A DNA stretch of 64,000 nucleotides from Candidatus Zhuqueibacterota bacterium (GCA_016934825.1 JAFGSB010000158.1:66842-130841); one strand, 5' to 3'. Positions 16,278 to 34,031 are shown, counted from the stretch's first letter. Numbers and translations are program-made. The notes: generated by a model not told the origin, from the sequence alone.

Positions 16278-16329
16278 TTTTTGAGTATAATTAAGACACA
16301 TACGAATCACTTGCAATAGAACCGGCTAT

Positions 16330-16386
16330 GGAGTGCATCGCCTTTATGCGATGCGGATCAGCCGTCCATAAAAGGACGGCACTCCG
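16330..16386. repeat. Nested double-hairpin element; its first hairpin is repeated at 16414-16438
   Basis: GGAGTGC[GCATCGC-CTTTAT-GCGATGC]...[CCGTCC-ATAAAAGG-ACGG]GCACTCC. GGAGTGTATCGCCTTTATGCGATGC recurs 84 bp downstream. Confidence 0.55.
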
Positions 16387-16584
16387 TGTGTAAAAACTAA
16401 TTCAAGCATTTTTGGAGTGTATCGCCTTTATGCGATGCAGTTATTTGCCACGCAAAAAAACACCCCGGAGCGTGGTCTCAAACATCATTATCTGAATTAT
16501 TACATATCCGGTCGTCGAGTAAGGCTGTCGGGCACAGCGAGACAGCCTGTACCGGGACGTCCGCTGATGTTGGAAAATGTCTCT

Positions 16585-16730
16585 CGCAGATACCGCGGAT
16601 ATCGCAGATACAATAAAAAGACCACTACTGTCATTTCGACCGCAGGGAGAAATCTTAAAATGTTTTACATGAACTGATACCTCTTCAAGAAACAAGATTT
16701 CTCTTCGCTGCGCTCATCGAAATGACAGAG
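16585..16730. repeat. Full MITE-like element with about 35-bp imperfect terminal inverted repeats
   Basis: CTGTCATTTCGACCGCAGGGAGAAATCTT...AAGATTTCTCTTCGCTGCGCTCATCGAAATGACAG; the arms are reverse complements. Confidence 0.65.
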
Positions 16731-16827
16731 TGGGTTATTTGGATGAAATTTTACAAAATAATGGAAATTTATTATTAGGTTCAGATTGTCTAATTACTGT
16801 GCGTACAAACCAGACAAAACGCAAATT

Positions 16828-16930
16828 CTGTCATTTCGACCGCAGGGAGAAATCTTATTATGTTTTACATGAACTGATACCTCTTTAGGAAACAAGAATT
16901 TTCTTCGCTATGCTCATCGTAATGACGGAG
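16828..16930. repeat. Second full copy of the MITE-like inverted-repeat element
   Basis: About 90% identical to 16628-16730 across roughly 100 bp, including both arms. Confidence 0.65.
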
Positions 16931-17220: not shown

Positions 17221-18105
17221 ATGCAAATTTCTATCAACGATTTAACACAGGTATATAAAAATGGCAATCGGGCCCTGCAAAAGATCAACCTGGAAATCAG
17301 CAGCGGGATGTTCGGACTGTTGGGACCGAACGGCGCGGGGAAAACAACATTGATGCGTATCCTGGTTACGCTGATGAAACCCACAGCCGGCGCCGTCAGT
17401 GTTAACGGTTATGATCTGCAAAGAAACCGGCGGGAGATCCGCTCAATGCTCGGGTATTTACCGCAGGATTTTCAAGTTTTATCCAAATTAAAGACCTGGG
17501 AATTTCTGGATTACGTCGCCAGGCTTGCCGGCCTGAGGAGTAAAAATGAACGAAGCGCGGCTGTTGACGAAATGCTGGAAAATGTGGGTCTTTTCGACGC
17601 GCGTGACCGCAGGGCGACAAAATTATCCGGCGGCATGAAAAGAAGACTAGGGATCGCGCAGGCGCTGATCGGTCATCCGCAAATTGTCATCGTGGATGAA
17701 CCGACAACCGGTCTTGACCCGGAAGAACGTATACGGTTCCGCAATCTGCTTGCCGAACTGAGCCGGAAGGACATTGTTATTATTCTGTCCACCCATATAG
17801 TCGGTGATATTTCCAGCACCTGCATGGATATGGCACTGTTGAATAAAGGCGAGGTCATTTTTAATGACGCTCCGGAAAAACTTGTACAGGAATGCAGGGG
17901 ACATGTATGGCAGATTAACGCCCTGGACAGCGAGTTGGAAGCCATCAAAGAGAAATATCCCGTTATTTCAACCATTCCATCGGAGAACGGCTGGGAAGTG
18001 CAGATCGTCGCCGATAAACTGGCGGACTTTAAAGGTGAACAGATTGAACCCAACCTTGAGCACGCCTATGTTTACCGTATGGAATATGGTTTAAATAACA
18101 AATGA
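17221..18105 (+). CDS. ABC transporter ATP-binding protein (ABC-2 subfamily) with a C-terminal accessory domain
   Basis: Walker A LLGPNGAGKTT, signature LSGGMKRRLGIAQAL, Walker B IVIVDEPTTGLD. Confidence 0.9.
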   Translation: MQISINDLTQVYKNGNRALQKINLEISSGMFGLLGPNGAGKTTLMRILVTLMKPTAGAVSVNGYDLQRNRREIRSMLGYLPQDFQVLSKLKTWEFLDYVARLAGLRSKNERSAAVDEMLENVGLFDARDRRATKLSGGMKRRLGIAQALIGHPQIVIVDEPTTGLDPEERIRFRNLLAELSRKDIVIILSTHIVGDISSTCMDMALLNKGEVIFNDAPEKLVQECRGHVWQINALDSELEAIKEKYPVISTIPSENGWEVQIVADKLADFKGEQIEPNLEHAYVYRMEYGLNNK

Positions 18106-18142
18106 TAAAATGTAATTGATTTTGTTTTGAAAGGTATAATTC

Positions 18143-21100
18143 ATGACATCATTATATAACATTTGGGTTGTTGCCCGTTATGAAACAAAAATATTATTCA
18201 GAAGCTGGTTTTTCAGGGTACTGGCATTGATCGCCATTGGTATTCTGACCTTTCTGAATATCATTTTTTTTTCCGGCGCCGTTAAAGATGTTCCCTGGGT
18301 TTTAAGAGGTGTTCCCTCATCCATTCCATATTTTAATTTGATGATGTTAAATACCGTTCAGGCCGTATTAACTGTATTTTTGGCCTCGGATTTTCTGAAA
18401 CGGGATGTGAAAACCAATACCACAGAAGTCATTTATATGCGTTCCATGTCCAACGCCGAATATGTGCTGGGTAAAACGGGCGGAATATTAAATATATTTA
18501 TTTTACTGAATTTGATCATTTTGTTTATCGGTGCGGTTATCAATATCGCTTTTTCCGATATCGGTTTTCATTTTATCAATTACATTGTCTATTTTCTGCT
18601 TATCAGTATACCCACAATTATTTTTATTACCGGATTTACATATTTAATCATGATAATCATCCGAAATCAGCCGGTTACGCTGGTTTTAATGGTTGGTTAC
18701 ATATCGCTCTCGTTAATCTATTTACAGCATAAAGCAAATTATATATTTGATATCGTTGCCTTTTATCTGCCGTTATCCTATTCCGATTTTGTCGGCTTTG
18801 ATCAAATTTCAATTATACTTTTACAGCGGGGAATGTACCTGTTTATCGGTCTGTCGTTTATATTTTTAACAATTTTGTTTCTGAAAAGACTGCCGCAGTC
18901 AAAAATTATGCTCAGGCTGGCGCCTGTTCTGTCGGTTATTTTTATGATTACGGCAATATACTTTTGTATAACCAGCCTCGGTGTTTACAGGTCCGGTCAA
19001 TCCCTGCGAACCAATATGACGGCATTAAATGACAGGTATATTAATGAGCCGGCGGTTTCGATAACAGATTGTACGCTTGATTTTGAGCATCTGGGCGATA
19101 CTTTTTCCTGCACGGCAAACCTGAAATTCACCAACCGGGATTCCGTTCCCATAAATTCATATATTTTCAGTCTCAATCCCGGGCTTCAACTGGACAAAGT
19201 TTTACAAAATCAGCAGCAAAAGGAATTTGAGCGGCAATATCATATTATTACCATAAAACCGGAAAGGCCTTTAAATCAGGGCGAGTCCGATTCCCTGATT
19301 TTTGTGTACCGGGGCGCTCCCGATGACAACGCCTGTTACCTTGATATTGATGAACAGAAACGAAGCCGGTCGAATTATATTGTCATGTATAAAGCAGGGA
19401 AAAAGTTCAGCTTTATAACTCCCCAATATGTGCTTCTAACCCGGGAAAATTTATGGTATCCGGTTCCCGGTGTTACACATGGTTCACATCTTTACACAAA
19501 TATTAAAAAGGATTTTATTCGTTTCAAATTAAACGTAAAATTAAAGAGTGATCTTCAACCGGTATCCCAGGGTTCAATGGATAAGATGAGTGACCGTGAA
19601 TTCCGGTTTGTGCCGGAAACCCCGCTGCCGCAAATATCATTAATTATTGGAAACTATAAAAAAATATTTACCACGGTTGACAGTATTGATTATAATCTGT
19701 ATACCCTGCCGAAGCATAATTTTTATTCGCCCTATTTCACGCAAATCGGCGATACGTTGAAATCAATCATCAGCGACGCGAAAAGGGAATATGAAACAAA
19801 ACTCAATCTTGATTATCCTTTTAAGCGGTTATCCATTATTGAGGTGCCCGTACATTATATTGCCTATGACCGTCTTGTTTCGTACCACCAGGAAAACGTA
19901 CAACCGGCGCTGGTATTATTCCCGGAGAATGGGGTCAGTGTTCAGCAAGTCGATTTCAGGGCACAAATACACCGATTCGAAAGAATGGAAAGGCGCATGA
20001 ACCAGACCATTGGTGAAAAGGAAATACAGGCCCGGTTGTTCAACATGTTCGTCAATGTTTTTACGGGCGGCGTTCCCATGTTCAATCCAAACAGGAATAT
20101 TTCTGTAAATTTAAATATATTCCCAAATTATTACACTTATAAAAATGTTGTATATTCCCGGGACTGGCCTGTTTTGAACGCATCCCTTGAAGCCTATCTC
20201 AATAGTAAACTGTCGGAATCCACACCCTTTTTCGCAAGAAACTGGCAGGGAATACTGAATGAAGAAAAAGCCAATCTTGCCTTAAAAACCAGCAGTTTGA
20301 ATGAAATACTCTCCAACCCGGACAACAGGGATATTGTTAATGATGTGCTGGAAAACAAAAGTGAAATGTTGTTCAAATTGCTGACATATGTACTGGGTGA
20401 TGAACAATTCAATACATATTTAACACAATATCTCGACCGGAATCGGTTCACTTCCGTGGATTTCCTGGATTTTGTATCCGGTGTGGAGAACAAATTAAAT
20501 TTTAATTTTTATGATTTTATGCAAAAGTGGTACGGTCAAATCCAAATGCCCGGCTATTATATAGCCAATATCCAGTCATATAAAGTTCTGGACGGCAATA
20601 GAACAAGATACCAGATTCGATTTGATGTATCGAATAATGAAGATATCGACGGGTTGATAACGGTCAATTTTCGTACCAGGGGAGGCGGTGTCCGGGGCCG
20701 GTTTATGGGCGGGGGAGGAGCACGCGGCGAATCGGAACCCGAGCGGATTTATTATATTCAAAAAATGCAGACAAAACAAATCGGCATCCTCTTGGATTCA
20801 CAACCGGGAGCCATAATGATCAATTCACTGGTTTCTTTGAACCTGCCATCCGCAATTGATCGTAGATTTGAAGAATTTGATTTAAATGAAAAAGCCGTTC
20901 CTTTTGAAGGGGAAAAAATTCTGGAAAAGCCCGTAATGCTTTCGCTGCCCAATGAAATTATTGTCGATAATGAAGATGAAGGTTTTACGGTACAGGCGCA
21001 GGATGAGACAAGTCTTTTGAAAAAAATATTCAAAATGAGCAACGGTGATAAAGAAGAATATGTCGGCTTGAATATGTGGCGCGTGCCGAACAACTGGAGC

Positions 21101-21496
21101 AAGACAATTCATTCCGATTTTTATGGGCGCTATGTCCATTCCGCATATTATGTAAAGTCCGGCAATGGTTCCAAAGTGGTAACATGGAATGCCAATATTC
21201 CGGAGAGCGGCCAATATGATGTTTATTGTTATGCAAACACGATTCAGTTCCGGGGAGGACCGGGAAGAGGACGAGGAAGGGGAAGAGAAAGACAACCCAT
21301 GGCGGGCGAAATGCATTATGACGTATATCATGATGACGGTCAGGAAGAAGTGACGCTGGATATCCAATCGGCGCAGGAAGGATGGAATTTTTTAGGAACC
21401 TACTATTTGTCGGCAGGCACTGCCCAGGTCCGGTTATCGGATAAATCAAACGCACGAATGGTCGTTGCCGACGCTGTCAAGTGGGTAAAGCATTAA
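18143..21496 (+). CDS. ABC-2 family permease fused to a large M1-aminopeptidase-like extracytoplasmic domain (no HEXXH zinc motif found)
   Basis: N-terminal 300-aa multi-TM ABC-2-like region, then about 800 aa containing the M1-like segment LTYVLGDEQFNTYLTQYLDRNRFTSVDFLDFV. Two Gly/Arg-rich low-complexity inserts (GGGVRGRFMGGGGARG and GGPGRGRGRGRER). Confidence 0.7.
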   Translation: MTSLYNIWVVARYETKILFRSWFFRVLALIAIGILTFLNIIFFSGAVKDVPWVLRGVPSSIPYFNLMMLNTVQAVLTVFLASDFLKRDVKTNTTEVIYMRSMSNAEYVLGKTGGILNIFILLNLIILFIGAVINIAFSDIGFHFINYIVYFLLISIPTIIFITGFTYLIMIIIRNQPVTLVLMVGYISLSLIYLQHKANYIFDIVAFYLPLSYSDFVGFDQISIILLQRGMYLFIGLSFIFLTILFLKRLPQSKIMLRLAPVLSVIFMITAIYFCITSLGVYRSGQSLRTNMTALNDRYINEPAVSITDCTLDFEHLGDTFSCTANLKFTNRDSVPINSYIFSLNPGLQLDKVLQNQQQKEFERQYHIITIKPERPLNQGESDSLIFVYRGAPDDNACYLDIDEQKRSRSNYIVMYKAGKKFSFITPQYVLLTRENLWYPVPGVTHGSHLYTNIKKDFIRFKLNVKLKSDLQPVSQGSMDKMSDREFRFVPETPLPQISLIIGNYKKIFTTVDSIDYNLYTLPKHNFYSPYFTQIGDTLKSIISDAKREYETKLNLDYPFKRLSIIEVPVHYIAYDRLVSYHQENVQPALVLFPENGVSVQQVDFRAQIHRFERMERRMNQTIGEKEIQARLFNMFVNVFTGGVPMFNPNRNISVNLNIFPNYYTYKNVVYSRDWPVLNASLEAYLNSKLSESTPFFARNWQGILNEEKANLALKTSSLNEILSNPDNRDIVNDVLENKSEMLFKLLTYVLGDEQFNTYLTQYLDRNRFTSVDFLDFVSGVENKLNFNFYDFMQKWYGQIQMPGYYIANIQSYKVLDGNRTRYQIRFDVSNNEDIDGLITVNFRTRGGGVRGRFMGGGGARGESEPERIYYIQKMQTKQIGILLDSQPGAIMINSLVSLNLPSAIDRRFEEFDLNEKAVPFEGEKILEKPVMLSLPNEIIVDNEDEGFTVQAQDETSLLKKIFKMSNGDKEEYVGLNMWRVPNNWSKTIHSDFYGRYVHSAYYVKSGNGSKVVTWNANIPESGQYDVYCYANTIQFRGGPGRGRGRGRERQPMAGEMHYDVYHDDGQEEVTLDIQSAQEGWNFLGTYYLSAGTAQVRLSDKSNARMVVADAVKWVKH

Positions 21497-21504
21497 AAAT
21501 ATGA

Positions 21505-22983
21505 GTGAATATTATGAACGTGAGAAAAACTTTAATTTTATTTTATCTTGTCGGGTTATTTGGTTTAAAATCTTTTGCACAGCAAACTTTGACTCTTGAA
21601 GATGCATTACGTATCGCGATGGAAAACAGCCCGGATATAAAACGTTCCATGTTAAACCTGGAAAGAAGCAGGCAATCATTGAGAGCCCAGCAGGCCGCCC
21701 TGAAATCGAAATTCAGTTTATCCGTAACGCCATTTGATTTCACGCGAATCCGTCAATTCAATACATTTTTCAACACATGGAACACGAACGATTCAAAATC
21801 ATCATCAGGCAATCTCAGCGTAACACAGCCCATCAAGTGGACCGACGGCACGCTGAGTCTGATCAATAGATTCGAATGGCAGGACGCGTACAGTGAATAC
21901 AGTAATGAGCGTAATAAAACTTTTAACAATAATTTATATCTGAGTTATAATCAACCTTTATTTACATATAATCAAACCAGGCTTGACCTGCGGGAACTGG
22001 AACTGGATTTTGAGAACACCTATCTGAGTTACGCTTTACAGAAATTGGGCCTTGAGTACCAGGTTTCCTTAAACTTTTATAATGTATATAAAAATAAAAT
22101 GAGTTATCAAATCGCCGTCGAGGAATTTAATAACCAGGACCAGAGTCTTCAGATTATAAAGAACAAGGTTGACGCCGGTTTATCGGCAAAAGAAGAATTG
22201 TACCAGGCGGAATTGAATCTCGCCACCAGTAAATCAACCGTCCAGAATTCTCAGGTCACCCTGGAAAATTCACTGGACGAATTCAAGCGTCTGACCGGTA
22301 TTTCCTTAATGGAGGACATTGATGTGATCGCCGATGTTTCGCATCAACCGGTTAACGTCGATATTCAAAAAGCTTTGGATACGGGACTGGGAAAAAGAAT
22401 GGAACTGCAGCAAAGGAATATTGACATAGAAAATTCGCTGGCAAATCTCACCCGGACAAAGGCATATAATGAATTCAAGGGTGATTTAACGTTAACCTAT
22501 GGTATTATCGGCACCAATGAAGAATATGAACATATATATGATGAGGCAACCAGAAATCAAAAAGTGTCGTTATCGTTTGAGATCCCTTTATTTGATTGGG
22601 GAGAACGGAATGCCCGGATCAAGGCGGCGGAGGCTACATTGAATAATCAGCATTTGTCGATGGAAAATCAAAAAAATGATATTATTATCGGTGTCAGGCA
22701 GGCGGTCCGGGACCTGCAAAACCTTGAAGTGCAGATTGAAATCGCACGCCAGAACGTTTCAAACGCGCAACTGACCTATGAGATTAAACTGGAACAATAT
22801 AAAAACGGTGATCTGACCAGTATGGACCTGAATTTGTATCAAATTCAGTTATCGGACAGGAAAACCGGTCTGGTTAATGCCCTGATAAATTATAAACTGG
22901 CTTTATTAAATTTGAAAATTGAATCCATGTGGGATTTTGTAAGAAACGAACCGGTCATCCCGGATGTGAAAAGTTTGGATTAA
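21505..22983 (+). CDS. tolC: TolC-family outer-membrane efflux protein
   Basis: Signal peptide; two tandem OEP repeats with typical coiled-coil and LxxALxNN motifs. Confidence 0.85.
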   Translation: MNIMNVRKTLILFYLVGLFGLKSFAQQTLTLEDALRIAMENSPDIKRSMLNLERSRQSLRAQQAALKSKFSLSVTPFDFTRIRQFNTFFNTWNTNDSKSSSGNLSVTQPIKWTDGTLSLINRFEWQDAYSEYSNERNKTFNNNLYLSYNQPLFTYNQTRLDLRELELDFENTYLSYALQKLGLEYQVSLNFYNVYKNKMSYQIAVEEFNNQDQSLQIIKNKVDAGLSAKEELYQAELNLATSKSTVQNSQVTLENSLDEFKRLTGISLMEDIDVIADVSHQPVNVDIQKALDTGLGKRMELQQRNIDIENSLANLTRTKAYNEFKGDLTLTYGIIGTNEEYEHIYDEATRNQKVSLSFEIPLFDWGERNARIKAAEATLNNQHLSMENQKNDIIIGVRQAVRDLQNLEVQIEIARQNVSNAQLTYEIKLEQYKNGDLTSMDLNLYQIQLSDRKTGLVNALINYKLALLNLKIESMWDFVRNEPVIPDVKSLD

Positions 22984-23005
22984 AACAGTATAGAGGTGGA
23001 ATAAC

Positions 23006-23383
23006 TTGTTCAAAGTGTTACTTGTCGGTGCGGGAGGTTTCGTCGGTTCGGTTCTGCGCTATTCCATGAGCGGACTGGTGCATCGGATGTTGAAAAATGC
23101 GTGGTTTCCCTATGGAACTTTAACGGTAAATTTACTGGGTTGTTTTTTAATCGGTTTTTTCAATGGCCTGGCAGAATCAAAACAAATTTTTTATGCGGAA
23201 ACAAGGCTTGTATTATTTATCGGAGTTTTAGGCGGATTTACGACCTTTTCAACTTTTAGTTACGAGTCATTCAGCTTTTTGCGGGATGGACAGCTTGTAC
23301 CCGCTTTTTGGAATGTAATAATTCATGTGGTTTTTGGTTTGAGTGCGGTTTATTTTGGCGATTTTGTGTCACGTTTATTTTAG
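23006..23383 (+). CDS. crcB: Fluoride ion channel CrcB/FluC
   Basis: GAGGFVGSVLRY and GFNGLA...GGFTTFSTFS motifs of CrcB; 125 aa. Confidence 0.9.
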   Translation: MFKVLLVGAGGFVGSVLRYSMSGLVHRMLKNAWFPYGTLTVNLLGCFLIGFFNGLAESKQIFYAETRLVLFIGVLGGFTTFSTFSYESFSFLRDGQLVPAFWNVIIHVVFGLSAVYFGDFVSRLF

Positions 23384-23392
23384 GAGAGAACG

Positions 23393-23734
23393 ATGAAGCT
23401 ACCCGACCAGGGACATTTGTTACGTATATTTATCGGTGAGAGCGATAAACATGAACACATGCCCCTGTATGAATGGATTGTCCGAAAGGCCCGGGAATGT
23501 GGTCTTGCCGGCGCTACGGTTATCAGGGGACTGCAGGGTTTCGGTCCCACCAGCCGGGTGTACACAACTAAAATTCTGCGTTTATCGGAAGATCTGCCGA
23601 TCATTATCGAAATTGTCGACACCATAGAAAAAATAGATAACTTTTGGCCCGTCATTCAGGATGTTATTCCTGAAGGGCTGGTCACCATCGAAAAAGTCCA
23701 GATTAAATTCTATCGAGGCGGCAAAATCTCCTGA
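23393..23734 (+). CDS. DUF190 domain protein (P-II-like fold, crcB-associated)
   Basis: HLLRIFIGESDKHEHMPLYEWIV...GATVIRGLQGFG is typical of DUF190, which is often adjacent to crcB. Confidence 0.75.
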   Translation: MKLPDQGHLLRIFIGESDKHEHMPLYEWIVRKARECGLAGATVIRGLQGFGPTSRVYTTKILRLSEDLPIIIEIVDTIEKIDNFWPVIQDVIPEGLVTIEKVQIKFYRGGKIS

Positions 23735-23778
23735 CAATGTCAATTCATTTAACTTATATAGCAATGAGGTAAAAACCT

Positions 23779-24827
23779 TGAAAAAATTAATTTTATTACT
23801 GATAATCCTGATATTCTTTTTGGCTTGCAACAGACAGGATTCCAATGTTGACCTTCAGATTGCTATTCCCGTTTCGGTCGAAGAAATAAAATATAAGCCG
23901 ATTGAGGAATTTGTAACGGCAACCGGAACCGTATATGCAATTCAGGAAGTTGACCTGAAAGCGGAAACCCCGGGATTTTATCGTCTGGCTGAAAATAAAA
24001 CAACCGGGAGACCTTTTACTCTTGGTGAACAGATCAAAAAAGGTGAGATCATCATATACCTTGATAACCCCGAGCTGGAAAACAGCATAAAAATTGAATC
24101 CCAGAAGCTGAACCTGGACATATCGGAACGGGAATTCGAAAAGCAAAAATCTTTATATGAAAAGGGCGGCGTGACGCTGCGGGAATTAAAAAATGCCGAG
24201 ATAAGCTTTATCGACGCACAATATAACTATGAAAGCGCATTGTTACAGCTTGCCAAAACAAAAGTTATTGCACCTTTTGACGGTATTATTATTGATTTGC
24301 CTTATCACACGGAAGGGACACGTGTAACGACGGATTCGCGAATGGTTCAGCTTATGAATTATAAAAGATTATATTCGGAATTCAACTTGCCGGGGAAAGA
24401 CCTGCCGCAAATCAAGGCCGATCAGCGGGTCAGGGTCATGAATTATTCCGTGCCGGATGATACGCTGTGGGGAAAGGTGACCCAGGTCGCGCCGGCCTTT
24501 GATCCGGACAGCCGGTCTTTTAAAACGTCGATCGAAGTGGATAATTCGCAAATGATTTTCCGTCCGGGTATGTTTATCAAGGCCGAAATTATCGTCGCGC
24601 ATGAAGACAGCGCTATTGTTATACCCAAAGATATTATACTGGCACAGGGTGATGAAAAATGGGTATATACCGTTGTAAAGGGCGCCGCCGACCGACGCAG
24701 GATAACTACCGGTATTGAAAATCCCCTTGAGGTACAGGTTCTGGAGGGATTAAAAGTAGAAGAACGACTGGTTGTGAAAGGTTTTGAAACCTTACAGCGT
24801 AATTCCAAAGTAAAAATAATTCGATAA
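23779..24827 (+). CDS. Efflux RND periplasmic adaptor subunit (HlyD/MFP family) lipoprotein
   Basis: Lipobox FLACN; coiled-coil, barrel-sandwich and beta-barrel regions. The ORF track start (23661) overlaps DUF190, so an internal TTG at 23779 is the likely start. Confidence 0.8.
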
Positions 24828-24854
24828 TCATTTGAGAATTAGAAATTTTATTAT

Positions 24855-27800
24855 ATGGAAAATATTACAAAATTTTCGGTAAAGTATCCGGTAACGATTT
24901 TAATGCTGATATTGGCTGTGTTGTTACTGGGTTACATTTCATTTAAAAAACTGGGGATAGACCTGTTCCCGGATTTAAACAATCCCCGGATATTTGTTGA
25001 AATAAAAGCCGGAGAACGCCCCCCGGAGGAGATTGAAAAACAGTTTGTTGAAAATATCGAATCCCTGGCAATCCGGCAGCGTAACGCGATACAGGTTTCG
25101 TCGATATCCCGGGTCGGCTCGGCGCAAATTACCGTTGAATATACCTGGGAAACCGACATGGACGAGGCGTTTCTGGATTTGCAAAAAGCCCTGACCGGAT
25201 ACAGCCAGAACAGCGATATTGACAATATAAGTATTTCGCGGCATGATCCCAATTCGGCGCCGGTTATGCTGGTTGGTTTTTCGAATCCGCAGATTACCGA
25301 TATGGATGAATTGCGCCGGGTCGCTGAAAATTATATACGAAATGAATTGATCCGTCTGGAGGGAGTTGCCGAGGTAGAATTGCTGGGTTATGAAGTCAAA
25401 GAGGCCGTCATCGAAACAAACAATTATCTGCTTGAGGCTTATGGTTTAACAACAGATGAAGTGACAAACCGGGTTATGAATTTTAACCGTAATATGTCGG
25501 GCGGTTCAATCGAGGAGATGGGGCGAAAGTATATCATCAAGGGGGTCGGAGAAATAAAATCCCTGCAGGACATAGAAAATGTTATCGTGACTTATAAAAA
25601 TGCGGAACAAAATGTTTCCGCAGGCAATGAAGCGATATCTAAACGAATTCCGGTATTTTTAAAAGATATCGCGACGGTCAGATTAATAAACAAGGATCCG
25701 GAAAATATCATACATGTAAACGGCAACAGGTGTATGGCGCTGGCAATTTACAAAGAAACAAAGTACAATACGGTTAAAGCGTCAACAACCCTCCTGGATA
25801 AGCTAAATGAACTGAGAAAAGCCCTGCCCGGCTACGAATTGTTTGTTATCAGCAACCAGGGAGAGTTTATCACCAAATCGATAAACGAAGTCAAGCAAAC
25901 AGCGTTGATCGGGATTCTGCTGGCCGTGCTGGTGCTGTTCGTATTTTTACGCCGTATCGGGGTTACGGTTATTATCAGTCTTGCGATCCCGATTTCCGTG
26001 GTAGCTACATTTAATCTCTTGTATTTCAAAGGATTAACATTGAATATTATGACCCTGGGCGGACTCGCGCTCGGAGCGGGTATGCTGGTTGATAATGCCA
26101 TAATCGTCATGGAAAATATTTACCGGAACCTGGAAGAAGGAATGTCCTTAAAAGAAGCCGCCATTACCGGAACGGCGCGGGTGGGAGGGGCCATAACGGC
26201 TTCGACTTTGACGACAATTGTCGTTTTTTTACCCATTGTCTATTTGCATGGAACCGCTGGAGAATTATTCAAGGACCAGGCCTGGACGGTCGCTTTTTCT
26301 TTGTTATCGTCGCTGGTCGTGGCGATTCTGGTTATTCCGATGTTGAGTGTCTGGTTGTTGAAAAGGGAAGAAAATTATAAATATCAAACCATTACATTTC
26401 CAAAATACAGAACCTTTCTGGACAGAATGCTGAATAAATCGGGAATGATCATTCTGGGCGCGATAGCGCTCGTTATTATTGCAGTACTGCTTGTGCCTAT
26501 TGTGGGCAGCGAGTTTATCCCCAAAACGGATTCCGATGAGTTCTCAATTAATCTAAAACTGCCGGAAGGGACCGAATTAAGGCGCACGGAAAGTACCGTC
26601 AGGAATATTGAGGATATGGTCAAACAATTGTTTGGCGATAATATTTTAACGGTTTACAGTAAAATAGGACCGTCTGCAAGTCTTACCGGCATCGACAATG
26701 AGGCTTATGAGGATGAAAATACGGCAACCGTATTGATCAAGCTGGATAAAAACCGGAAAATCGGCAGCGAGGAGATTATTAACCGGCTGTCTTTATCTAT
26801 CGGCGCCATTCCCGATATTGAGGCGGAATTTATTCAGGAACAAACCGAACTGCAAACCACATTAGGGACGGATGCGGCTCCAATTGTGCTGGAAATAAAG
26901 GGGAACGACCTAAAGGTGATCCAGAATTTGACCGAACAGGCCGCTGAAAAACTGGAAAATATGAATGATTTATTCAATATTGCTACCAGTTTCGACGAAG
27001 GCCGGCCGGAAGTCGATGTGGTGATTGACAGGGTCCGGGCTGGATTATTAAATGTAAGCATCAATACGATAAGCGATCAGCTTACAAGCCAATTGGCCGG
27101 TCAGGAAGCCGGGCAATGGCAAAACGATGGAGAATTGCAGGATATAATCGTTAAATTGCCCAAAGTTGATATTAAGCAGTTATCGGGTATTACCCTTCAA
27201 TCCGGTGATCAGAAAATCAGCCTGGACGACGTGACGGATATAAGAATAACCCAGACAACCAATGAAATATACCGCAGGAACCAGACCCGGATCGGGAAGA
27301 TAACCGCTCATATCAGGTCGGATAAACCATTTGATTCTATCGTTAAGCGTATAGATGATGAAATGAGCACTATTACCTATCCACCCGACTACAAGTATGA
27401 AATTACCGGCGAAGAACTGAAAAGGAGGGAAGCGTTCGATAATTTGAAATTCGCGCTTTTATTATCGATCATTCTTGTGTATATGGTTATGGCGTCGCAA
27501 TTCGAATCGCTTGTTCATCCCTTTATTATTTTATTTACCATACCGCTGGCCGGAGTCGGTTCCGTGTTTCTGTTTTTTATATTGGGAAAAAGTTTTAATG
27601 TAATGGCATATATCGGAATCATCATGCTTGCGGGTATAGCGGTGAATGATTCGATTATTCTGATCGATGCGATAAACCAGTTAAAGAGCCAGGGACGGAA
27701 ACAGCGGGACGCGATCCTGACCGCCGCGCAGTGGAGAATTCGTCCCATTATTATGACCAGTTTGACCACCATTCTCGCGCTTTTTCCTCTGACCATCGGT

Positions 27801-27944
27801 TTCGGTGAGGGCGCTTCTTTACGCGCGCCGCTGGCGATGGCTGTTATCGGAGGTTTGATCAGTTCGACAATTCTGACATTAATTGTTATACCCTGTGTGT
27901 ATTGGCTGGTTGACAGATTAACTCATCCTGCTTTTGTTGACTAA
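24855..27944 (+). CDS. Efflux RND transporter permease (AcrB/HAE family)
   Basis: 1029 aa, 12-TM topology with two large periplasmic loops; conserved TM4 and TM10 regions. Confidence 0.9.
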   Translation: MENITKFSVKYPVTILMLILAVLLLGYISFKKLGIDLFPDLNNPRIFVEIKAGERPPEEIEKQFVENIESLAIRQRNAIQVSSISRVGSAQITVEYTWETDMDEAFLDLQKALTGYSQNSDIDNISISRHDPNSAPVMLVGFSNPQITDMDELRRVAENYIRNELIRLEGVAEVELLGYEVKEAVIETNNYLLEAYGLTTDEVTNRVMNFNRNMSGGSIEEMGRKYIIKGVGEIKSLQDIENVIVTYKNAEQNVSAGNEAISKRIPVFLKDIATVRLINKDPENIIHVNGNRCMALAIYKETKYNTVKASTTLLDKLNELRKALPGYELFVISNQGEFITKSINEVKQTALIGILLAVLVLFVFLRRIGVTVIISLAIPISVVATFNLLYFKGLTLNIMTLGGLALGAGMLVDNAIIVMENIYRNLEEGMSLKEAAITGTARVGGAITASTLTTIVVFLPIVYLHGTAGELFKDQAWTVAFSLLSSLVVAILVIPMLSVWLLKREENYKYQTITFPKYRTFLDRMLNKSGMIILGAIALVIIAVLLVPIVGSEFIPKTDSDEFSINLKLPEGTELRRTESTVRNIEDMVKQLFGDNILTVYSKIGPSASLTGIDNEAYEDENTATVLIKLDKNRKIGSEEIINRLSLSIGAIPDIEAEFIQEQTELQTTLGTDAAPIVLEIKGNDLKVIQNLTEQAAEKLENMNDLFNIATSFDEGRPEVDVVIDRVRAGLLNVSINTISDQLTSQLAGQEAGQWQNDGELQDIIVKLPKVDIKQLSGITLQSGDQKISLDDVTDIRITQTTNEIYRRNQTRIGKITAHIRSDKPFDSIVKRIDDEMSTITYPPDYKYEITGEELKRREAFDNLKFALLLSIILVYMVMASQFESLVHPFIILFTIPLAGVGSVFLFFILGKSFNVMAYIGIIMLAGIAVNDSIILIDAINQLKSQGRKQRDAILTAAQWRIRPIIMTSLTTILALFPLTIGFGEGASLRAPLAMAVIGGLISSTILTLIVIPCVYWLVDRLTHPAFVD

Positions 27945-30900
27945 AATTAGCGGACATATGAATTTTTTCGGATCTTTAATAAAACGTAAAGTTTTTATCA
28001 GTATGCTTTTTGTGGGGCTGTGCCTTTTGGGTATTGTCTCCTATAAACAGCTTCCGGTTGAATTATTCCCCAACGCCGAACTCCCTTTTTTAATAGTTCA
28101 GGTCAGTTCCGTCCAGGAAATGGACCCGGAGTATCTTGAAAAACAGGCCATTGTGCCCGTCGAAGGAGTTATTACAACACTGGACGGGATTGAAAAGATT
28201 GAATCATACGTGGAAAGACGCCGGGGGATTGTTTTTGTATATTTCAATCAGAAAACCAAAATTAAATATGCCTATTTAAAGCTCGAAGAAAAAATAAATT
28301 CGATCAAAGCGTCGCTTGGCGATGAATTTTTTGTAACGGTTTTTAAGGTCGATACGGATCAGATTGCCAATATGTTCATGACCCTGCAGGTCCGCGGCAG
28401 CGGCGGTTTGAACAGGGTGAGGGAGGTTATCGATCAAAAAGTGACCCCGGAGTTACAAAATATCGACGGCATCGCCAATGTGGAGATCTTTGGCGGACAG
28501 CAAAAATCAATTGAGATCATTCTGGATGAACAGGCATGCCGCGCCCATGGAATTACCCCCGCGACAATCCGTTCCATAATTTCAGGTAATAATAAATATA
28601 AATCATTTGCCGGTAAAGTATACAGTGAAGATAAATATTATTTTGTCAATGTTACGGCCGATTATGGAAATGTCGAAGATATTGAAAATATTATTGTGGA
28701 CAGCAACGGCCCGGTTTTTCTAAAAGATATCGCGGATGTGTATTTTGGCGTTAAAGAACAGACAACCATCAGCCGCGTTAACGGCAAGGAAGCCATAACC
28801 ATTCAACTCATAAGAGATACGCAGGTAAATCTGATTGATCTATCGCATAAAACAAAAAGGATTATCAAACAGTTAAATGAAAATCTGGCGCCGGATGATG
28901 TAGAAGTTGTGATTCAAAGTGATTCCGCCGAAATTGTGGAAAAAAATATTCATCTCATCATACAGCTTGCTCTGGTCGGCGGGTTGCTGGCCGTCGTCAT
29001 CCTCTGGATATTTTTACGTAACATGCGGCTGGTTTTGATCATTGCATTATCCATGCCTGTTTCCATTTTCACCGCATTTAATTTTTTCTATGCGTTCGGT
29101 ATAACCATCAATAGTCTGACCCTTGTCGGAATGGCGCTGGCAATCGGTATGCTGCTGGATAACAGCGTGGTGGTATTGGAAAATATATACCGAATCTTTG
29201 CCAATTACAAGAATCCCGATCAGGCGGTTGTCCAGGGAACCGGTGAGGTATGGCGGTCCATACTGGCAGCCACATTGACCACAATTACGGTTTTTCTCCC
29301 GTTTGCCTTTGCGTCCAACTTTTTAATCAAATTGCTTGGCCGTCATATCGGCGTATCCATTATTTCAACCCTCGGAGTTTCGCTTGTTATTGCATTTTTA
29401 CTCATCCCTATGGCCGCATATATAATTTTAAAGAATTTAAAAAAGGATTCTCCCGTTAATTTTCAATTCGTTTCGCATAATAACAGGCTGTTGCAAATTT
29501 ATAATGTTGTGTTAAAATCGTGCCTTCGTTTTCCCGCCAGAACGATAATCGGTACAATTTTTTTATTTTTTGTAAGTTTGATGATCTGTCTTGCCCTCAG
29601 TATAAATATACCTCGGGAAACGGAAGTTAAGGAATTTAATCTGTACTTGACCATGCCGCGCGGTTCAACCCTGGAATCGACCGATGCGGCAACGGCCGAA
29701 CTCGAAAAACTGCTGGAGAATATAAAGGAAAAAGATGAGATCATCAGCAAAATATATGAAGAGGAATCAATTGTAACCATAAAATTAAAGGATAATTATT
29801 ATAATATTGATAACCGGTCTATACCGCAAATCAAGGAAAAGTTAGAAAAAACCATTAATGATTTTCGCGTGGCGGATGTCAGTTTTGACCAGCCCCAGTC
29901 GGGAGGACGTTTCAGGGGCGGGGCGGGACAAAACCCGGGCCTCGGTCTCGAAAATCTGCTGGGTATCGGCAGCCAGAACGAGCGGGTTGTGATTAAGGGC
30001 AATGATTTCGAAAAGATGCGAAATATCGCTGATGATATTCGAGATTATATTGCCGATCTGACAACCGTTAGTAATACGAATATCAATATGTCCGACGACC
30101 GCCCGGAAATTCAATTGTTATTAGATAAACAATTATTAAGTCAATTCAATGTTTCGTTGAATGCCATCGCCGGCGAGTTATCAACATTTGAAAATGAGTT
30201 CTCATCTAATATTAAATTCAAACAGAATACCGAAGAATATGATATTATCATTAAAACCAATAATGAAAAACAAAAGTCTTTCGATGATCTGCAAAATATT
30301 CGTATCCCGTCTGAAACCGGCGGAGAATACGAACTGGACAACCTCAGCCGTATTATTTACTCGCAGGGCATTTCCGGGATCAATCGTGTCAACCAGGAAA
30401 AACAAATAGAAATTACCTATAGATTTATCAGCGAGGTAACCGCGTCAAAGGAGTATCTGAATTCGGCGAGAAGCGAAATCGACCAGATTATCGCGAATCT
30501 GAACCTGCCGTCCGGAATAGCCGTCGAGGTCATTCATGACAGCAGTGAACTGCAGGAATTTTATTTTTTGATTGGCGCTACGTTTATATTAATTTTTATG
30601 ATCCTCGCATCCGTTTTCGAATCATTATCGACGCCGTTTGTAATTATGTTTACCATTCCGCTGGCGGCGATTGGCTCCCTGTGGGCGCTGATCCTGACCG
30701 GGAACTCTATACTGAATGCCAACACGTTGATCGGATTTATTATTTTGCTGGGGGTTGTCGTGAATAACGGTATTATTTATATCGACTATACGCGAATATT
30801 GATCCGCAAAAAATATAAAAGGTCCCGCGCGTTAATGATGGCAGGACGGGCGCGGGTCCGGCCGATTTTGATCACCGCTATTACGACCATCATTGCCATG

Positions 30901-32634
30901 CTGCCGCTGGCAATGGGAAAATCCGAATACGTCGCCCAAATCGGCGCTCCGTTTGCTATAACGGTGATTGGCGGCTTGTCGCTCAGCACATTGTTTACAC
31001 TTGTTTTTATACCGACGTTTTATTCCGGTCTTGATACGGCCCTGAGATGGTTATATCAATTGAACTGGAAAATCAAACTATTGCAGATAATCGCATTTGT
31101 AACAGGGTGCGTGCTTGTATATTATCATGTTGAAAGTTTCCTGTGGCGTTTTATCGATCTGCTTTTGTTATTGCTGGTTATACCTTCAATAACCCTGTTC
31201 ATTTTTAAGAGTCTGCGACGCGCCAGGGCCGATTATATAAAACCGGACCGGGAATTGAAAATCAAAGTCCGGCAGCTTGTAAAAATATACGATGATTACA
31301 GCCGATTTAGCCGGGAATGGAACAAGGGGAAAAAAATACGGGAAAGAGCGGAAATCAGCAAGGAATATAAAACCCGGAAAGATATTGAACATCTTTTATG
31401 GGAATTGCCGCTGCTTATTTTTCTTTTCTACTTTACCTATCTTTATTTGAGAAGCTATTTCTGGATGTTTGTTCTTTCTCATTTTGTTTATTTTTATGTC
31501 TTTTACCTGCTCGGACCGTTCCTCAGTCAATTAAGGAACGGGTTGCTGGCAAAAAGAATCTATTCGTTGGTTTATTGGGGTGTGCCGTTATTGAATTTGA
31601 TCTACTTCTACATTCGCTGGAAAAATATCCCGGCGTTGATTTTCATCGCCGTAATCTGGACGCTGGCCCTGGCAGTGTATATCACATCCAATAAACTTCA
31701 CCGGGAAAAGGTGGATATTGTACGTCTGGGTGGAAAGTTTAAAAAGATTCGGCAGAATTTTTATCGGCTGGTGCAAATAATACCCGTAATCGGACGTAAA
31801 AAGTCTCCGTTTAAAGCCCTGGACGGGATTTCACTGGAGATTGGCAGCGGTATGTTCGGTCTGCTAGGACCGAACGGCGCCGGTAAAACAACATTGATGA
31901 GAATAATATGCGGCATCCTTGAACAGAGCCGCGGCAAGATTTGGGTAAACGATATCGCTCTTGAAGAAAAACGCGAGGAATTACAGGGTTTGATCGGGTA
32001 CTTACCCCAGGAATTCGGCATGTACGAAAATATGACCGCATTCGAATTTCTGGATTACCAGGCATTATTAAAGGGTATCCTTGATAATGAGCAGCGGGAA
32101 AAACGTATAGACTATGTCCTGTCCGCCGTACACATGCAGGAAAGCCGGAACCAGAAAATCGAATCTTTTTCCGGGGGCATGAAACAGCGCATCGGTATCG
32201 CGCAGACATTGTTGCATTTACCGCGCATACTGGTCGTGGATGAACCCACTGCAGGTCTCGATCCGAGGGAACGGATCCGTTTTCGTAATTTGCTGGTCGA
32301 ACTCGGACGCGAGCGGATTGTCATTTTTTCGACACATATCATCGAAGATATTGCCAGTTCCTGCAACAAAGTTGCGGTTTTGAACCTGGGTAAACTCGTA
32401 TATCTTGGCACGCCGACACAAATGGTGAAAATTGCGCAAAATAATGTCTGGCATTTTTATTTAAGTGCGGATGAATTTAAAGAAAAAAGCGCTGATTTGA
32501 CAATTGTACACCATATGCGTATTAAAGACAGAATTCGAATCCGCTGCCTGGCAAATGAAAAACCGTATCCCGACGCGGTACAGGTGAAACCGACGCTTGA
32601 AGACGCCTATTTGTGGTTGTTACGTAATGAATAA
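27934..32634 (+). CDS. RND transporter permease fused in frame to four extra TM helices and a C-terminal ABC ATPase domain
   Basis: Residues 1 to about 1035 form a complete AcrB-like RND. A roughly 200-aa basic/amphipathic linker with about 4 TM helices follows. Residues from about 1290 form an ABC ATPase (GLLGPNGAGKTT, FSGGMKQRIGIAQTL, ILVVDEPTAGLD) about 50% identical to ORF 17221. Single uninterrupted ORF; its start overlaps the upstream RND stop. Confidence 0.85.
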   Translation: MLTKISGHMNFFGSLIKRKVFISMLFVGLCLLGIVSYKQLPVELFPNAELPFLIVQVSSVQEMDPEYLEKQAIVPVEGVITTLDGIEKIESYVERRRGIVFVYFNQKTKIKYAYLKLEEKINSIKASLGDEFFVTVFKVDTDQIANMFMTLQVRGSGGLNRVREVIDQKVTPELQNIDGIANVEIFGGQQKSIEIILDEQACRAHGITPATIRSIISGNNKYKSFAGKVYSEDKYYFVNVTADYGNVEDIENIIVDSNGPVFLKDIADVYFGVKEQTTISRVNGKEAITIQLIRDTQVNLIDLSHKTKRIIKQLNENLAPDDVEVVIQSDSAEIVEKNIHLIIQLALVGGLLAVVILWIFLRNMRLVLIIALSMPVSIFTAFNFFYAFGITINSLTLVGMALAIGMLLDNSVVVLENIYRIFANYKNPDQAVVQGTGEVWRSILAATLTTITVFLPFAFASNFLIKLLGRHIGVSIISTLGVSLVIAFLLIPMAAYIILKNLKKDSPVNFQFVSHNNRLLQIYNVVLKSCLRFPARTIIGTIFLFFVSLMICLALSINIPRETEVKEFNLYLTMPRGSTLESTDAATAELEKLLENIKEKDEIISKIYEEESIVTIKLKDNYYNIDNRSIPQIKEKLEKTINDFRVADVSFDQPQSGGRFRGGAGQNPGLGLENLLGIGSQNERVVIKGNDFEKMRNIADDIRDYIADLTTVSNTNINMSDDRPEIQLLLDKQLLSQFNVSLNAIAGELSTFENEFSSNIKFKQNTEEYDIIIKTNNEKQKSFDDLQNIRIPSETGGEYELDNLSRIIYSQGISGINRVNQEKQIEITYRFISEVTASKEYLNSARSEIDQIIANLNLPSGIAVEVIHDSSELQEFYFLIGATFILIFMILASVFESLSTPFVIMFTIPLAAIGSLWALILTGNSILNANTLIGFIILLGVVVNNGIIYIDYTRILIRKKYKRSRALMMAGRARVRPILITAITTIIAMLPLAMGKSEYVAQIGAPFAITVIGGLSLSTLFTLVFIPTFYSGLDTALRWLYQLNWKIKLLQIIAFVTGCVLVYYHVESFLWRFIDLLLLLLVIPSITLFIFKSLRRARADYIKPDRELKIKVRQLVKIYDDYSRFSREWNKGKKIRERAEISKEYKTRKDIEHLLWELPLLIFLFYFTYLYLRSYFWMFVLSHFVYFYVFYLLGPFLSQLRNGLLAKRIYSLVYWGVPLLNLIYFYIRWKNIPALIFIAVIWTLALAVYITSNKLHREKVDIVRLGGKFKKIRQNFYRLVQIIPVIGRKKSPFKALDGISLEIGSGMFGLLGPNGAGKTTLMRIICGILEQSRGKIWVNDIALEEKREELQGLIGYLPQEFGMYENMTAFEFLDYQALLKGILDNEQREKRIDYVLSAVHMQESRNQKIESFSGGMKQRIGIAQTLLHLPRILVVDEPTAGLDPRERIRFRNLLVELGRERIVIFSTHIIEDIASSCNKVAVLNLGKLVYLGTPTQMVKIAQNNVWHFYLSADEFKEKSADLTIVHHMRIKDRIRIRCLANEKPYPDAVQVKPTLEDAYLWLLRNE

Positions 32635-32658
32635 TTTATTATTTTGACGGATTAAAAT

Positions 32659-33384
32659 ATGAAACCGGACACATTATCAGTCAGAAAAATTTTATCTATT
32701 ATTATAAAATTAACAAGATATAATTTAAAAATTATCTTTGGCAACATATTTATATATTTTTTACTTGGCTCAATCGGCTTTTACCTGTTAATTTCGGTCA
32801 TTACTTTTTTCGATTCAAGCATTACCCCCACTGCTGCAATCGTATACTACCTGCTGTTGTTTCCGGGATTATTATTAATTTTTTACCCCACGACCTTTGG
32901 TATCCAGTATGACAGCGACACCAGGATGCTGGAAGTACTTTTTGGTATACCGGATTATCGTTACAAAGTGTGGCTGGTGCGATTGGCAATTATTTATGTT
33001 CTTGTTTTTTGTATATTGATTGTGCTTGCCTTTTTCGGATTGATCGCATTTACACGATTTTCAATCCTGAACATGGTCTTTCAACTCATGTTCCCGATAT
33101 TTTTTATCGGCAGTCTTGCCTTTATGACGTCAACTCTGGTCAGAAACGGGTACGGAGCAATGGTAATTTTAATTATAGTCGGAATGGTTTTCTGGGTATT
33201 GAGCGGCATCCTGGTTGAAAGCCAGTGGAATTTATTTCTCAATCCGTTTCGTGTACCCGAAAATGTAAATGAAATAATCTGGGCGGATATTAAAGTCAAA
33301 AACCGGCTTTACATTCTTTCGGGTACAATCCTGATGCTTTTATTCGGACTTTTTAATATGCAAAAACGGGAAAAATTTGTCTGA
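32659..33384 (+). CDS. Small 6-TM ABC-2-like permease (putative partner of the fused ABC domain)
   Basis: 241-aa polytopic protein; N-terminus resembles the ABC-2 permease N-terminus of ORF 18143. Confidence 0.5.
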   Translation: MKPDTLSVRKILSIIIKLTRYNLKIIFGNIFIYFLLGSIGFYLLISVITFFDSSITPTAAIVYYLLLFPGLLLIFYPTTFGIQYDSDTRMLEVLFGIPDYRYKVWLVRLAIIYVLVFCILIVLAFFGLIAFTRFSILNMVFQLMFPIFFIGSLAFMTSTLVRNGYGAMVILIIVGMVFWVLSGILVESQWNLFLNPFRVPENVNEIIWADIKVKNRLYILSGTILMLLFGLFNMQKREKFV

Positions 33385-33584: not shown

Positions 33585-33765
33585 TGTTTTTCTCCAAATG
33601 TCTTAATAATGTAATCTTTGTTCTTTAATAAATTTTTTACTGCTTTTTTGTTTTTTGGAAATCAATTTTTCATTTAAACCATTTATTTCAATATTTTATT
33701 TCAAAAATAATATAAACTGTTTGCAAAATTAAGAAAAAATGACTATAATATCCTGAATATAGTTG

Positions 33766-33940
33766 AATAGAGGCGCCTTTTGCAAGAGTAAACACATCAA
33801 AGGATAAGCGTATCTGTTAAAGATGTGTTAAAAGGGCAACAGGCCGAAATAGTTCCGATACGCTTTAAGGAGCTATTGGGACGGTATGTGAACAACTACC
33901 GTACTGTCACGGAAAAAAATCCGTGGAGCGCTATTTATTA
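33766..33940 (+). ncRNA. Lysine riboswitch (L-box) aptamer
   Basis: Starts with AGAGGCGCC (P1 5' strand). Conserved AAAGGGCAACAGGCCGAA core and 3' ACUGUCACGGAAAAAAAUCCGUGGAGCGCUAU, paralleling the B. subtilis lysC leader (GCUGUCAAGAAA...UUGGAGGGCUAU). A T-run follows at 34003-34012; lysine genes lie downstream. Confidence 0.7.
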
Positions 33941-34031
33941 AACATGCTGATTAATAGAAAAACAGTAGGTTGATTGAAAAGGGCGCCCCGATTCTTTCGA
34001 CCTTTTTTTTTGTTTATTTCGTTTGTTAATT

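Follow-up and report, generated by a model that had tools for sequence, protein, structure and literature searches.

The 64,000-nucleotide (nt) stretch of DNA analysed here (the window; Candidatus Zhuqueibacterota bacterium, GCA_016934825.1 JAFGSB010000158.1:66842-130841) carries, from 17221 to 33384, a cluster of nine transport-related genes in which a resistance-nodulation-division (RND) permease and an ATP-binding cassette (ABC) ATPase are joined in a single open reading frame (ORF). As the original prediction had stated, all of the genes are co-directional and nearly abut: they lie on the + strand, the intergenic gaps are, in order, 37, 17, 22, 9, 43, 27, 13, and 24 nt (range 9-43), and gene calls together with Pfam and NCBIfam matches place the genes where it had put them. 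No terminator-like site lies within the intergenic gaps of the locus. The first gene (17221-18105) encodes a free ABC ATPase of 294 amino acids (aa), ATP1, which is of the DrrA/GldA/NosF type and has a C-terminal accessory domain (Pfam ABC_tran, E 1.6e-32). It is followed by the gene for PermM1 (18143-21496), a 1117-aa membrane protein with an ectodomain of ~830 aa and matches to Peptidase_M1 (partial) and Golvesin_C; by a gene for a TolC-like outer-membrane factor (21514-22983; Pfam OEP, E 2.5e-44; NCBIfam TolC and NodT families), whose start is taken from the L088 gene caller and which has an alternative GTG start at 21505; by the CrcB fluoride channel gene, crcB (23006-23383; Pfam CRCB, E 1.3e-28); and by a DUF190 gene (23393-23734; Pfam DUF190, E 1e-37). 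Next come the genes for a 349-aa periplasmic adaptor of the membrane fusion protein (MFP) type (23778-24827; start from the gene caller), for RND1, a stand-alone HAE1-type RND permease of 1029 aa (24855-27944), for the fusion protein RND2::ABC (27958-32634, alternative start 27934), and for Perm241 (32659-33384), a predicted ABC-2 (type V) membrane domain of 241 aa without an ectodomain. The TolC, the adaptor, and the second RND had been correctly placed between two ATPase-permease modules, but crcB and the DUF190 gene had been missed.

RND2::ABC is one ORF of 1566 aa, in which ACR_tran is matched at aa 15-1031 and ABC_tran at aa 1297-1440. Of the 83 loci in which both parts are present, 79 have a stop-free frame that leads from RND2 into the ATPase, which bears out the earlier claim that the two are fused. 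The fused frame is carried by Bacteroidota, KSB1, Krumholzibacteriota, Calditrichota, Melioribacteraceae, and Chlorobiota; further carriers of the cluster are Gemmatimonadota and, by protein names, Latescibacterota, Zixibacteria, and Zhuqueibacterota. A search with ORF residues 1035-1566 yielded at least 8000 scored candidates, the best 120 of which all have E < 1e-179; many of these 120 include the end of the RND domain and bear the name 'efflux RND transporter permease subunit'. Genome contigs contain this region at 245 places, and 80 loci were kept. Full-length fusions of 1558-1605 aa have been called by independent pipelines, and 16 fused representatives (1425-1590 aa) are present among the 150 best matches to ATP1. 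In the NCBI annotation of a candidate division KSB1 metagenome-assembled genome (MAG), whose proteins JXQ31_18530 and JXQ31_18565 are identical to PermM1 and Perm241, the spacing of the locus tags implies one gene between JXQ31_18555 and JXQ31_18565. Public records know the fusion just as 'efflux RND transporter permease subunit' or 'hypothetical protein'. The four exceptions to the fused frame are two long-read assemblies with frame breaks (L013 and L037) and two loci from independent samples (L002 and L003) in which 17 nt separate an RND gene of 1101 aa from an ATPase gene of 483 aa. This natural split falls after transmembrane helix (TM) 14 and before the first ATPase strand, and therefore marks the domain boundary of the fusion. 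The RND-ABC fusion is genuine and old, and its conservation extends over thousands of database proteins and at least six groups of phylum rank. (In a long-read contig from a metagenome, L001 494-7132, the RND1 and RND2 genes are called as fragments of 463, 176, 652, and 931 aa, probably as the result of indel errors; fragmentation of this type explains many of the 'partial' or 800-930 aa database entries of the family.)

The RND2 domain occupies ORF aa 9-1034 (27958-31035; ACR_tran, E 1.7e-175). The organisation of what follows it is seen in an AlphaFold2 model that covers ORF residues 1035-1566 and draws on 60 homologues (mean predicted local distance difference test score, pLDDT, of 85). Along the chain, the model has two membrane helices, one beta-strand, one helix in the cytoplasm, a further four membrane helices, the usual ATPase fold, and the C-terminal domain. 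The two extra membrane helices (TM13-14; ORF aa 1045-1098, 31066-31227; model helices 11-31 and 35-64, pLDDT ~90) are predicted to return the chain to the cytoplasm after the RND domain. The strand that comes next, ELKIKVRQLVKIYDD (ORF aa 1107-1121, 31252-31296; model strand 76-85), is the best match to ATP1 aa 1-14 within the whole 1566-aa ORF; in the 60 homologues its K83 is invariant and its Y85 is at least 90% conserved. From its position, when established knowledge of the fold is applied by alignment, we take this Tyr to be the adenine-stacking residue of the A-loop. A contiguous ATPase fold has its A-loop ~25 residues ahead of Walker A, and the fold of ATP1 is contiguous; in the fused domain, a stretch of 170 residues (ORF aa 1122-1291, 31297-31806) with one cytoplasmic helix and then four predicted membrane helices intervenes between the A-loop Tyr and the second strand (insertion helices in the model: 124-137, 141-165, 169-195, and 198-224). 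This insertion is conserved in 60/60 homologues and has near-invariant residues of its own (W122, P125, W181, and P184); it has no Pfam match. The remainder of the ATPase, from Walker A to the H-loop, and the C-terminal accessory domain are encoded at 31807-32634 (ABC_tran, E 6.5e-29), and when the insertion is left out, the fused ATPase aligns with ATP1 without a gap. Both ATPase domains contain GPNGAGKTT, SGGMK(R/Q)R, VDEPT.GLD, and STH, and so possess Walker A, the Q-loop, the signature, Walker B with its catalytic Glu, and the H-loop; in the fused ATPase, the catalytic motif residues are invariant in the 60 homologues. With Foldseek, the model of the fused ATPase matches TM_1403, LptB, and NosF, and it superposes over ~283 columns on the free 285-aa ATPase TM_1403 and on NosF. 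An ATPase with four membrane helices inserted beside the adenine-binding Tyr is an unusual variant of a very well-studied fold.

The two ATPases had been thought to be ~50% identical, and the two modules to be reciprocally domain-swapped paralogues. The domains share 41% identity over 275 aa (BLASTP) or 39% in a global alignment, whereas ATP1 orthologues are 66-70% identical to one another across phyla and 38-40% identical to the fused domain. The best NCBIfam matches of ATP1 are to DrrA (208 bits) and GldA (187 bits), both under their cut-offs. An exhaustive search with ATP1 returned fused proteins at 41-48% identity and many free ATPases in the same range; free ATPases of ~290 aa match ATP1 from end to end, and the C-terminal domain ending in LEHAY/LEDAY, which had been considered unusual, is ordinary for the DrrA/NosF type. 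A phylogeny had been proposed as a means to date the duplication. In a neighbour-joining tree of 107 domains, the fused ATPases form one clade and the ATP1 orthologues another, which is nested among free ATPases. The reading of the two ATPases as sister paralogues was rejected on the basis of these separate clades and of the identities given above, and no sign of domain exchange was seen in the ATPases or in the permease cores (see below). Because the tree is without bootstrap and has a star-like base, an ancient common origin of ATP1 and the fused ATPase within the subfamily is possible. By these comparisons, the two are members of one DrrA/GldA/NosF-type subfamily, as had been proposed, and not of unrelated ones, without support for a recent duplication or domain swap.

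Both RND proteins are full-length permeases of the kind with 12 helices and a pair of large periplasmic loops: ACR_tran covers RND1 (E 5.7e-215) at 1-1020 of its 1021 profile positions and RND2 at 5-1018. The two are 28% identical, and the closest solved relative of each is MdtB (RND1, E 1.4e-94); since both match MdtB best, a B or C role cannot be apportioned to either. Their genes stand in tandem behind one adaptor gene, as in MdtBC-type pumps, and this order is kept in every locus that reaches far enough. The cognate adaptor (RND_mfp, 186.7 bits with a cut-off of 94.9; Pfam HlyD_D23; weak MacA match, 59.6 bits) and the outer-membrane factor of a tripartite RND pump are present, and both are conserved in the cluster. 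Neither RND retains the canonical proton relay (AcrB D407, D408, K940, and R971). TM4 (RND1, 26085-26120; RND2, 29149-29184) has Asp-Asn, which is invariant in 66 RND1 and present in 70/71 RND2 sequences; in TM10 (RND1, 27633-27668; RND2, 30751-30786), the Lys is replaced by Val in all. The TM11 Arg is invariant in the 66 RND1 and 71 RND2 sequences. An extra TM10 Asp is seen in 52/66 RND1 sequences, and RND2 has Asn there. The canonical proton relay is thus reduced in both RNDs, which leaves room for a possible role of ATP in the RND cycle. SecDF-type RND proteins operate with a comparable minimal residue set, and proton coupling through the reduced relay is thus still possible.

The two permeases differ in size and in what is attached to the membrane core. 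The membrane part of PermM1 (aa 1-285, 18143-18997) consists of an ABC-2-like six-helix core and a seventh hydrophobic segment, which, judging from the arrangement of these segments, would put the remainder of the protein in the periplasm. Among PermM1 homologues, ABC2_membrane_2 is matched in 9/37 (best E 1e-9), and the JGI label is NosY-type permease. The ectodomain (aa 286-1117, 18998-21496) contains an M1-aminopeptidase-like segment (aa 714-796, nt 20282-20530; partial Pfam match to Peptidase_M1, E 4.5e-6) and, at its end, a Golvesin_C module (aa ~988-1115, nt 21104-21487; Pfam). A PermM1 profile matches the cold-active aminopeptidase 3cia (E 3.8e-8) and xanthan lyase 6f2p (E 2.5e-7) in the PDB, and the last ~130 residues resemble the C-terminal module of xanthan lyase. 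The description of the ectodomain as M1-like holds in that there is partial Peptidase_M1 similarity; it does not extend to the catalytic part, as the similarity starts past the zinc ligands. M1 zinc aminopeptidases have an HEXXH-(18)-E zinc site and a GXMEN exopeptidase motif. The ectodomain has neither; HEXXH is absent in 119/120 PermM1 homologues and GXMEN in 120/120. Because these motifs are missing and the similarity begins where it does, the ectodomain is not a peptidase, and its reading as an active M1 enzyme was rejected. (In a Gemmatimonadota MAG, L087 6251-13423, and in a close relative, L091 10001-17174, the PermM1 gene is tandem-duplicated behind a single ATP1.) Perm241 has six hydrophobic helices and no Pfam or NCBIfam match; its orthologues are without a curated family, and 13/50 of them weakly match ABC2_membrane_3. 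Its predicted model has the six-helix type V (ABC-2) membrane fold, in keeping with the minimal ABC-2-like permease lacking an ectodomain that had been proposed. A strictly conserved loop (residues ~81-108), with invariant Q83, D85, D87, E92, R101, K103, and R108, is placed by the model at the position of the ATPase-contacting helix in type V permeases. A comparison of the PermM1 and Perm241 cores with hhalign, collinear over 202 columns, gave no significant match (probability 1%, E 0.05), and homology of the two cores is unproven.

The conservation of the cluster was investigated by tblastn of the window's proteins against related loci, with locus flanks of 10 kb. The arrangement TolC-MFP-RND1-RND2::ABC-Perm241 is found in 56 loci. 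In 48 of these, the PermM1 C-terminus is directly upstream of TolC, and in the other 8, the flank ends inside or just before TolC; the order PermM1-TolC-MFP-RND1-RND2::ABC-Perm241 is thus kept in 48/48 loci with sufficient flank. A metagenome scan with PermM1 gave one locus, and the ATP1-PermM1 contexts come from exact-protein look-ups of PermM1 homologues. Wherever the region is visible (L084-L089, L091, and L092), ATP1 is directly 5' of PermM1, and the pair heads the cluster in KSB1, Krumholzibacteriota, Bacteroidota, and Gemmatimonadota. ATP1-PermM1-TolC-MFP-RND1-RND2::ABC is seen in Krumholzibacteriota (L085), Bacteroidota (L086), Gemmatimonadota (L087 and its relative L091), and L092, and the genes upstream of ATP1 vary between L085, L086, L087/L091, and L092. 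Chance is far from sufficient to explain the arrangement, as dozens of genomes, spread over several phyla, share this gene order. The constant order, the fixed position of ATP1 5' of PermM1, and the varied upstream genes uphold the claim of one inherited unit as opposed to pumps that are neighbours by chance, and synteny strongly supports the locus as one functional unit.

Some genes within the cluster are lineage-specific. Between TolC and MFP, crcB and the DUF190 gene are present in the window and its closest relatives, L004 and L013, alone, with a 33-codon DUF190 remnant in L005. Given this confinement, the pair is a recent lineage-specific insertion, and it presumably rides on transcription of the operon. 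In some Bacteroidales, a gene for a DUF418 membrane protein lies between MFP and RND1 (L044 2080-3318, Pfam-confirmed); the same is inferred for L061, L075, and L076 from a gap of similar size. RND1 and RND2 are separated by 500-760 nt of unassigned sequence in L047, L056, L074, and L081.

A KSB1 genome whose locus tags begin with EH223 has the cluster in two pieces on different contigs. One (L089 9082-15939) consists of ATP1-PermM1-TolC-MFP, followed by unrelated genes; upstream of ATP1 it has the hydrolase and LOG-like genes that precede ATP1 in the window too. The other (L010 3811-12357) consists of RND1-RND2::ABC-Perm241 behind a sulfatase gene, and its Perm241 is identical to EH223_06910. 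With the window's TolC and MFP as tblastn queries, no match to either was found in the 21.6 kb covered of the L010 locus. Each ATPase has stayed beside its adjacent permease, which supports the pairings ATP1/PermM1 and fused ATPase/Perm241, and the adaptor and duct have stayed with ATP1 and PermM1. The lack of an adaptor or duct gene near the L010 RND pair argues that the two halves of the cluster depend on each other.

Outside of the cluster, the flanking genes (LOG-like, hydrolase, M20 peptidase, and aspartokinase) have no relation to transport. Its 3' boundary is marked by a full-length lysine riboswitch (33760-33941, + strand, 114 bits), which is directly 5' of genes for the M20 peptidase (34023-35027) and aspartokinase (35028-36419), an unrelated lysine-pathway operon. 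This riboswitch is the window's sole Rfam match; at the gathering threshold, no Rfam element, fluoride riboswitch included, was found inside the locus. Upstream of ATP1 there is 1.1 kb of non-coding DNA with hairpin repeats. Three exact copies of a 23-nt core, TGTCATTTCGACCGCAGGGAGAA, lie within 16242-16930 (none expected by chance), as do two 115-nt copies that are 87% identical; the copy for which folding was computed, 16616-16730, forms a long hairpin (-39.4 kcal/mol, z -7). Neither the rest of the window nor any of 88 related loci contains the core, and for this reason the element that bears it looks like a lineage-specific miniature inverted-repeat transposable element (MITE)- or repetitive extragenic palindromic (REP)-like element. 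A separate 26-nt repeat is present at 16329 and 16413. A sigma-70 scan gave 80 promoter-like sites versus 53 expected, and a terminator scan gave 30 terminator-like sites versus 20 expected; these counts are uninformative for a host whose promoter rules may differ.

Starting from the observed gene content, fusion, split ATPase, predicted folds, and conservation, we infer ATPase-permease pairings, a physical complex, a direction of transport, a kind of substrate, and a mode of energy coupling as follows. We lean, somewhat beyond an even balance, toward the locus being one conserved operon whose products make up a single envelope export system, integrated in function and containing two kinds of pump. 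Its backbone would be an MdtABC-type tripartite RND pump, with one outer-membrane factor, one adaptor, and RND1 and RND2 as permeases. The fused ATPase, given the two extra helices and the four-helix insertion within its fold, would be pinned to the membrane beside the RND domain. It would form one ABC module (module 2) with Perm241, which is encoded immediately 3', and ATP1 would form the other (module 1) with PermM1 and its catalytically dead M1-like ectodomain. In the most likely mechanism suggested by these sequences, the system would work as a hard-wired relay. The ATP-driven ABC-2 modules would extract a substrate that is amphipathic or associated with the membrane out of the cytoplasm or the inner leaflet (alternatively, module 1 might handle the substrate in the periplasm by means of the PermM1 ectodomain) and pass it to the periplasmic side. 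There, the RND permeases would capture it and drive it out by way of the common adaptor and outer-membrane duct. If the parts do cooperate in this way, the system offers a natural test of how extraction from the cytoplasm or inner leaflet is coupled to periplasmic RND capture, a long-standing question in drug and lipid export, and cultured carriers (Marinifilum and Ancylomarina) make genetics and cryo-EM feasible.

Several considerations weigh against such an integrated system. Synteny is proof of shared function or regulation, not of a physical complex, and the split in EH223 shows that the halves of the cluster need not be co-transcribed. There is also a mismatch of symmetry between an RND trimer and an ABC dimer, for which two copies of RND2 per trimer would be a speculative solution. 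In addition, the two tandem copies of PermM1 that follow a single ATP1 in L087 and L091 speak for a pair of separate ABC dimers rather than a mixed heterodimer, and suggest that module 1 is a self-contained dimer and not a partner of module 2. A stricter form of the integrated system, a single complex of a secondary-active RND pump with a primary-active ABC transporter, joined by the fusion and the membrane-embedded insertion, is put forward tentatively, as an idea that we think will more probably fail than hold. If it were true, one transport cycle would draw on both the proton gradient and ATP hydrolysis, whether in a relay of two stages within one particle or through gating or driving of the RND by ATP, and the cluster would represent a previously unrecognised class of envelope-spanning exporter that is widespread in Bacteroidota and related phyla.

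The main rival to an integrated export system is that the cluster encodes co-localised but physically independent transporters, which are kept together by one pathway or regulon. ATP1/PermM1 would then be an ABC-2 pump in its own right, working with the adaptor and TolC as YbhGFSR or MacAB-TolC do; the RND pair would be an ordinary MdtABC-like pump on the same adaptor and duct; and the fused ATPase with Perm241 would be a third transporter, whose fusion to RND2 ensures co-expression or co-localisation only. This would fit the position of each ATPase gene directly 5' of one permease gene, which is the usual layout of homodimeric ABC-2 systems, as well as the PermM1 duplications, the tolerance of lineage-specific crcB, DUF190, and DUF418 genes within the cluster, and the dispensability of the fusion in L002 and L003. 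EH223 cuts both ways, since its halves are separate and the TolC and adaptor have stayed with module 1, yet the 21.6 kb covered at its RND locus contain no match to the window's adaptor or duct genes. However, co-expression alone is a poor explanation for a fusion that is conserved across phyla together with six extra membrane helices, and PermM1 is directly upstream of TolC in every informative locus. We consider independent transporters possible but doubtful.

A second alternative to the integrated system is an ATP-assisted RND pump, in which the fused ATPase, acting through the insertion and TM13-14, would drive or gate the RND cycle and so replace or supplement the proton-motive force, with Perm241 as a scaffold for ATPase dimerisation. 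The loss of the AcrB-type relay from both RNDs, with the TM11 Arg alone kept beside the TM4 Asp-Asn and TM10 Val, would be understandable in such a pump. In addition, the four-helix insertion begins right after the adenine-stacking Tyr, where nucleotide binding could couple to movements in the membrane. However, one TM4 Asp and the TM11 Arg are invariant, and SecDF-like minimal proton coupling is possible with these; Perm241 appears to be a complete type V permease, whose strictly conserved cytoplasmic loop fits an ordinary ATPase-permease pair; RND1 has no ATPase; and the natural split in L002 indicates that the covalent link is not essential. We consider an ATP-assisted RND pump unlikely. 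That the 1566-aa ORF is an artefact of an assembly or frameshift error, or of a stop codon lost in the MAG, with two genes in reality, is scarcely credible and was rejected, since, for all that L002 and L003 have separate genes and the long-read L013 and L037 have frame breaks, the frame is continuous in independent assemblies and phyla, the linker region is conserved and has invariant residues, and NCBI (from the locus-tag spacing) annotates one gene here.

RND pumps are powered by the proton gradient and ABC transporters by ATP, and the two are treated as alternative engines of tripartite efflux. In this cluster, both engines are joined in one polypeptide that is widely conserved, yet it is publicly named in generic terms. 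Full-text searches, in a coverage that lies outside most subscription journals and TCDB, gave no description of the RND-ABC fusion or of the cluster, and the portion searched of a 2021 Chemical Reviews survey of tripartite pumps does not mention an RND-ABC fusion.

Among known systems, MdtABC-TolC and MuxABC-OpmB are like the present one in that a single adaptor gene precedes a tandem pair of divergent HAE1-type RND genes, with an outer-membrane factor in the cluster. They differ in that RND2 here has two extra helices and a C-terminal ABC ATPase, the cluster adds two ABC-2 permeases and a second ATPase, and the TM4 Asp-Asp and TM10 Lys are not kept. NosDFY is a type V ABC transporter that acts on a periplasmic domain. 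Unlike NosDFY, the present cluster has no NosD-like beta-helix, copper-chaperone context, or nearby nos genes; its periplasmic part is M1-like and fused to the permease, and the system is tied to RND, adaptor, and TolC. The E. coli systems YbhGFSR and RbbA/YhhJ-YhiI resemble the present one in that genes for ABC-2 ATPases and permeases lie beside that for an MFP-family adaptor, and YbhS and YbhR are two different ABC-2 permeases of one system. In contrast to the present cluster, these systems are not known to have an RND, an ATPase-RND fusion, a membrane insertion in the ATPase, or an M1-like ectodomain. MacAB-TolC shares with this cluster an ABC transporter with a periplasmic domain, an adaptor gene, and a TolC-type duct. 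However, MacB is a type VII protein with four helices and a periplasmic domain between TM1 and TM2, whereas Perm241 is predicted to be type V, PermM1 homologues match ABC2_membrane_2, and the PermM1 ectodomain follows the membrane core. Candidate relatives of PermM1 are the TCDB family of 'peptidase-fused, functionally uncharacterised ABC-2' proteins and those with the NCBI name 'ABC transporter permease/M1 family aminopeptidase'. PermM1 is like these in having an N-terminal ABC-2 core followed by a large M1-like domain, and unlike them in that it lacks HEXXH and GXMEN, ends in Golvesin_C, and is always within an RND cluster. Taken together, these comparisons indicate that the parts of the cluster are of known kinds, and that the fusion, the split ATPase, and the fixed association of the parts are new.

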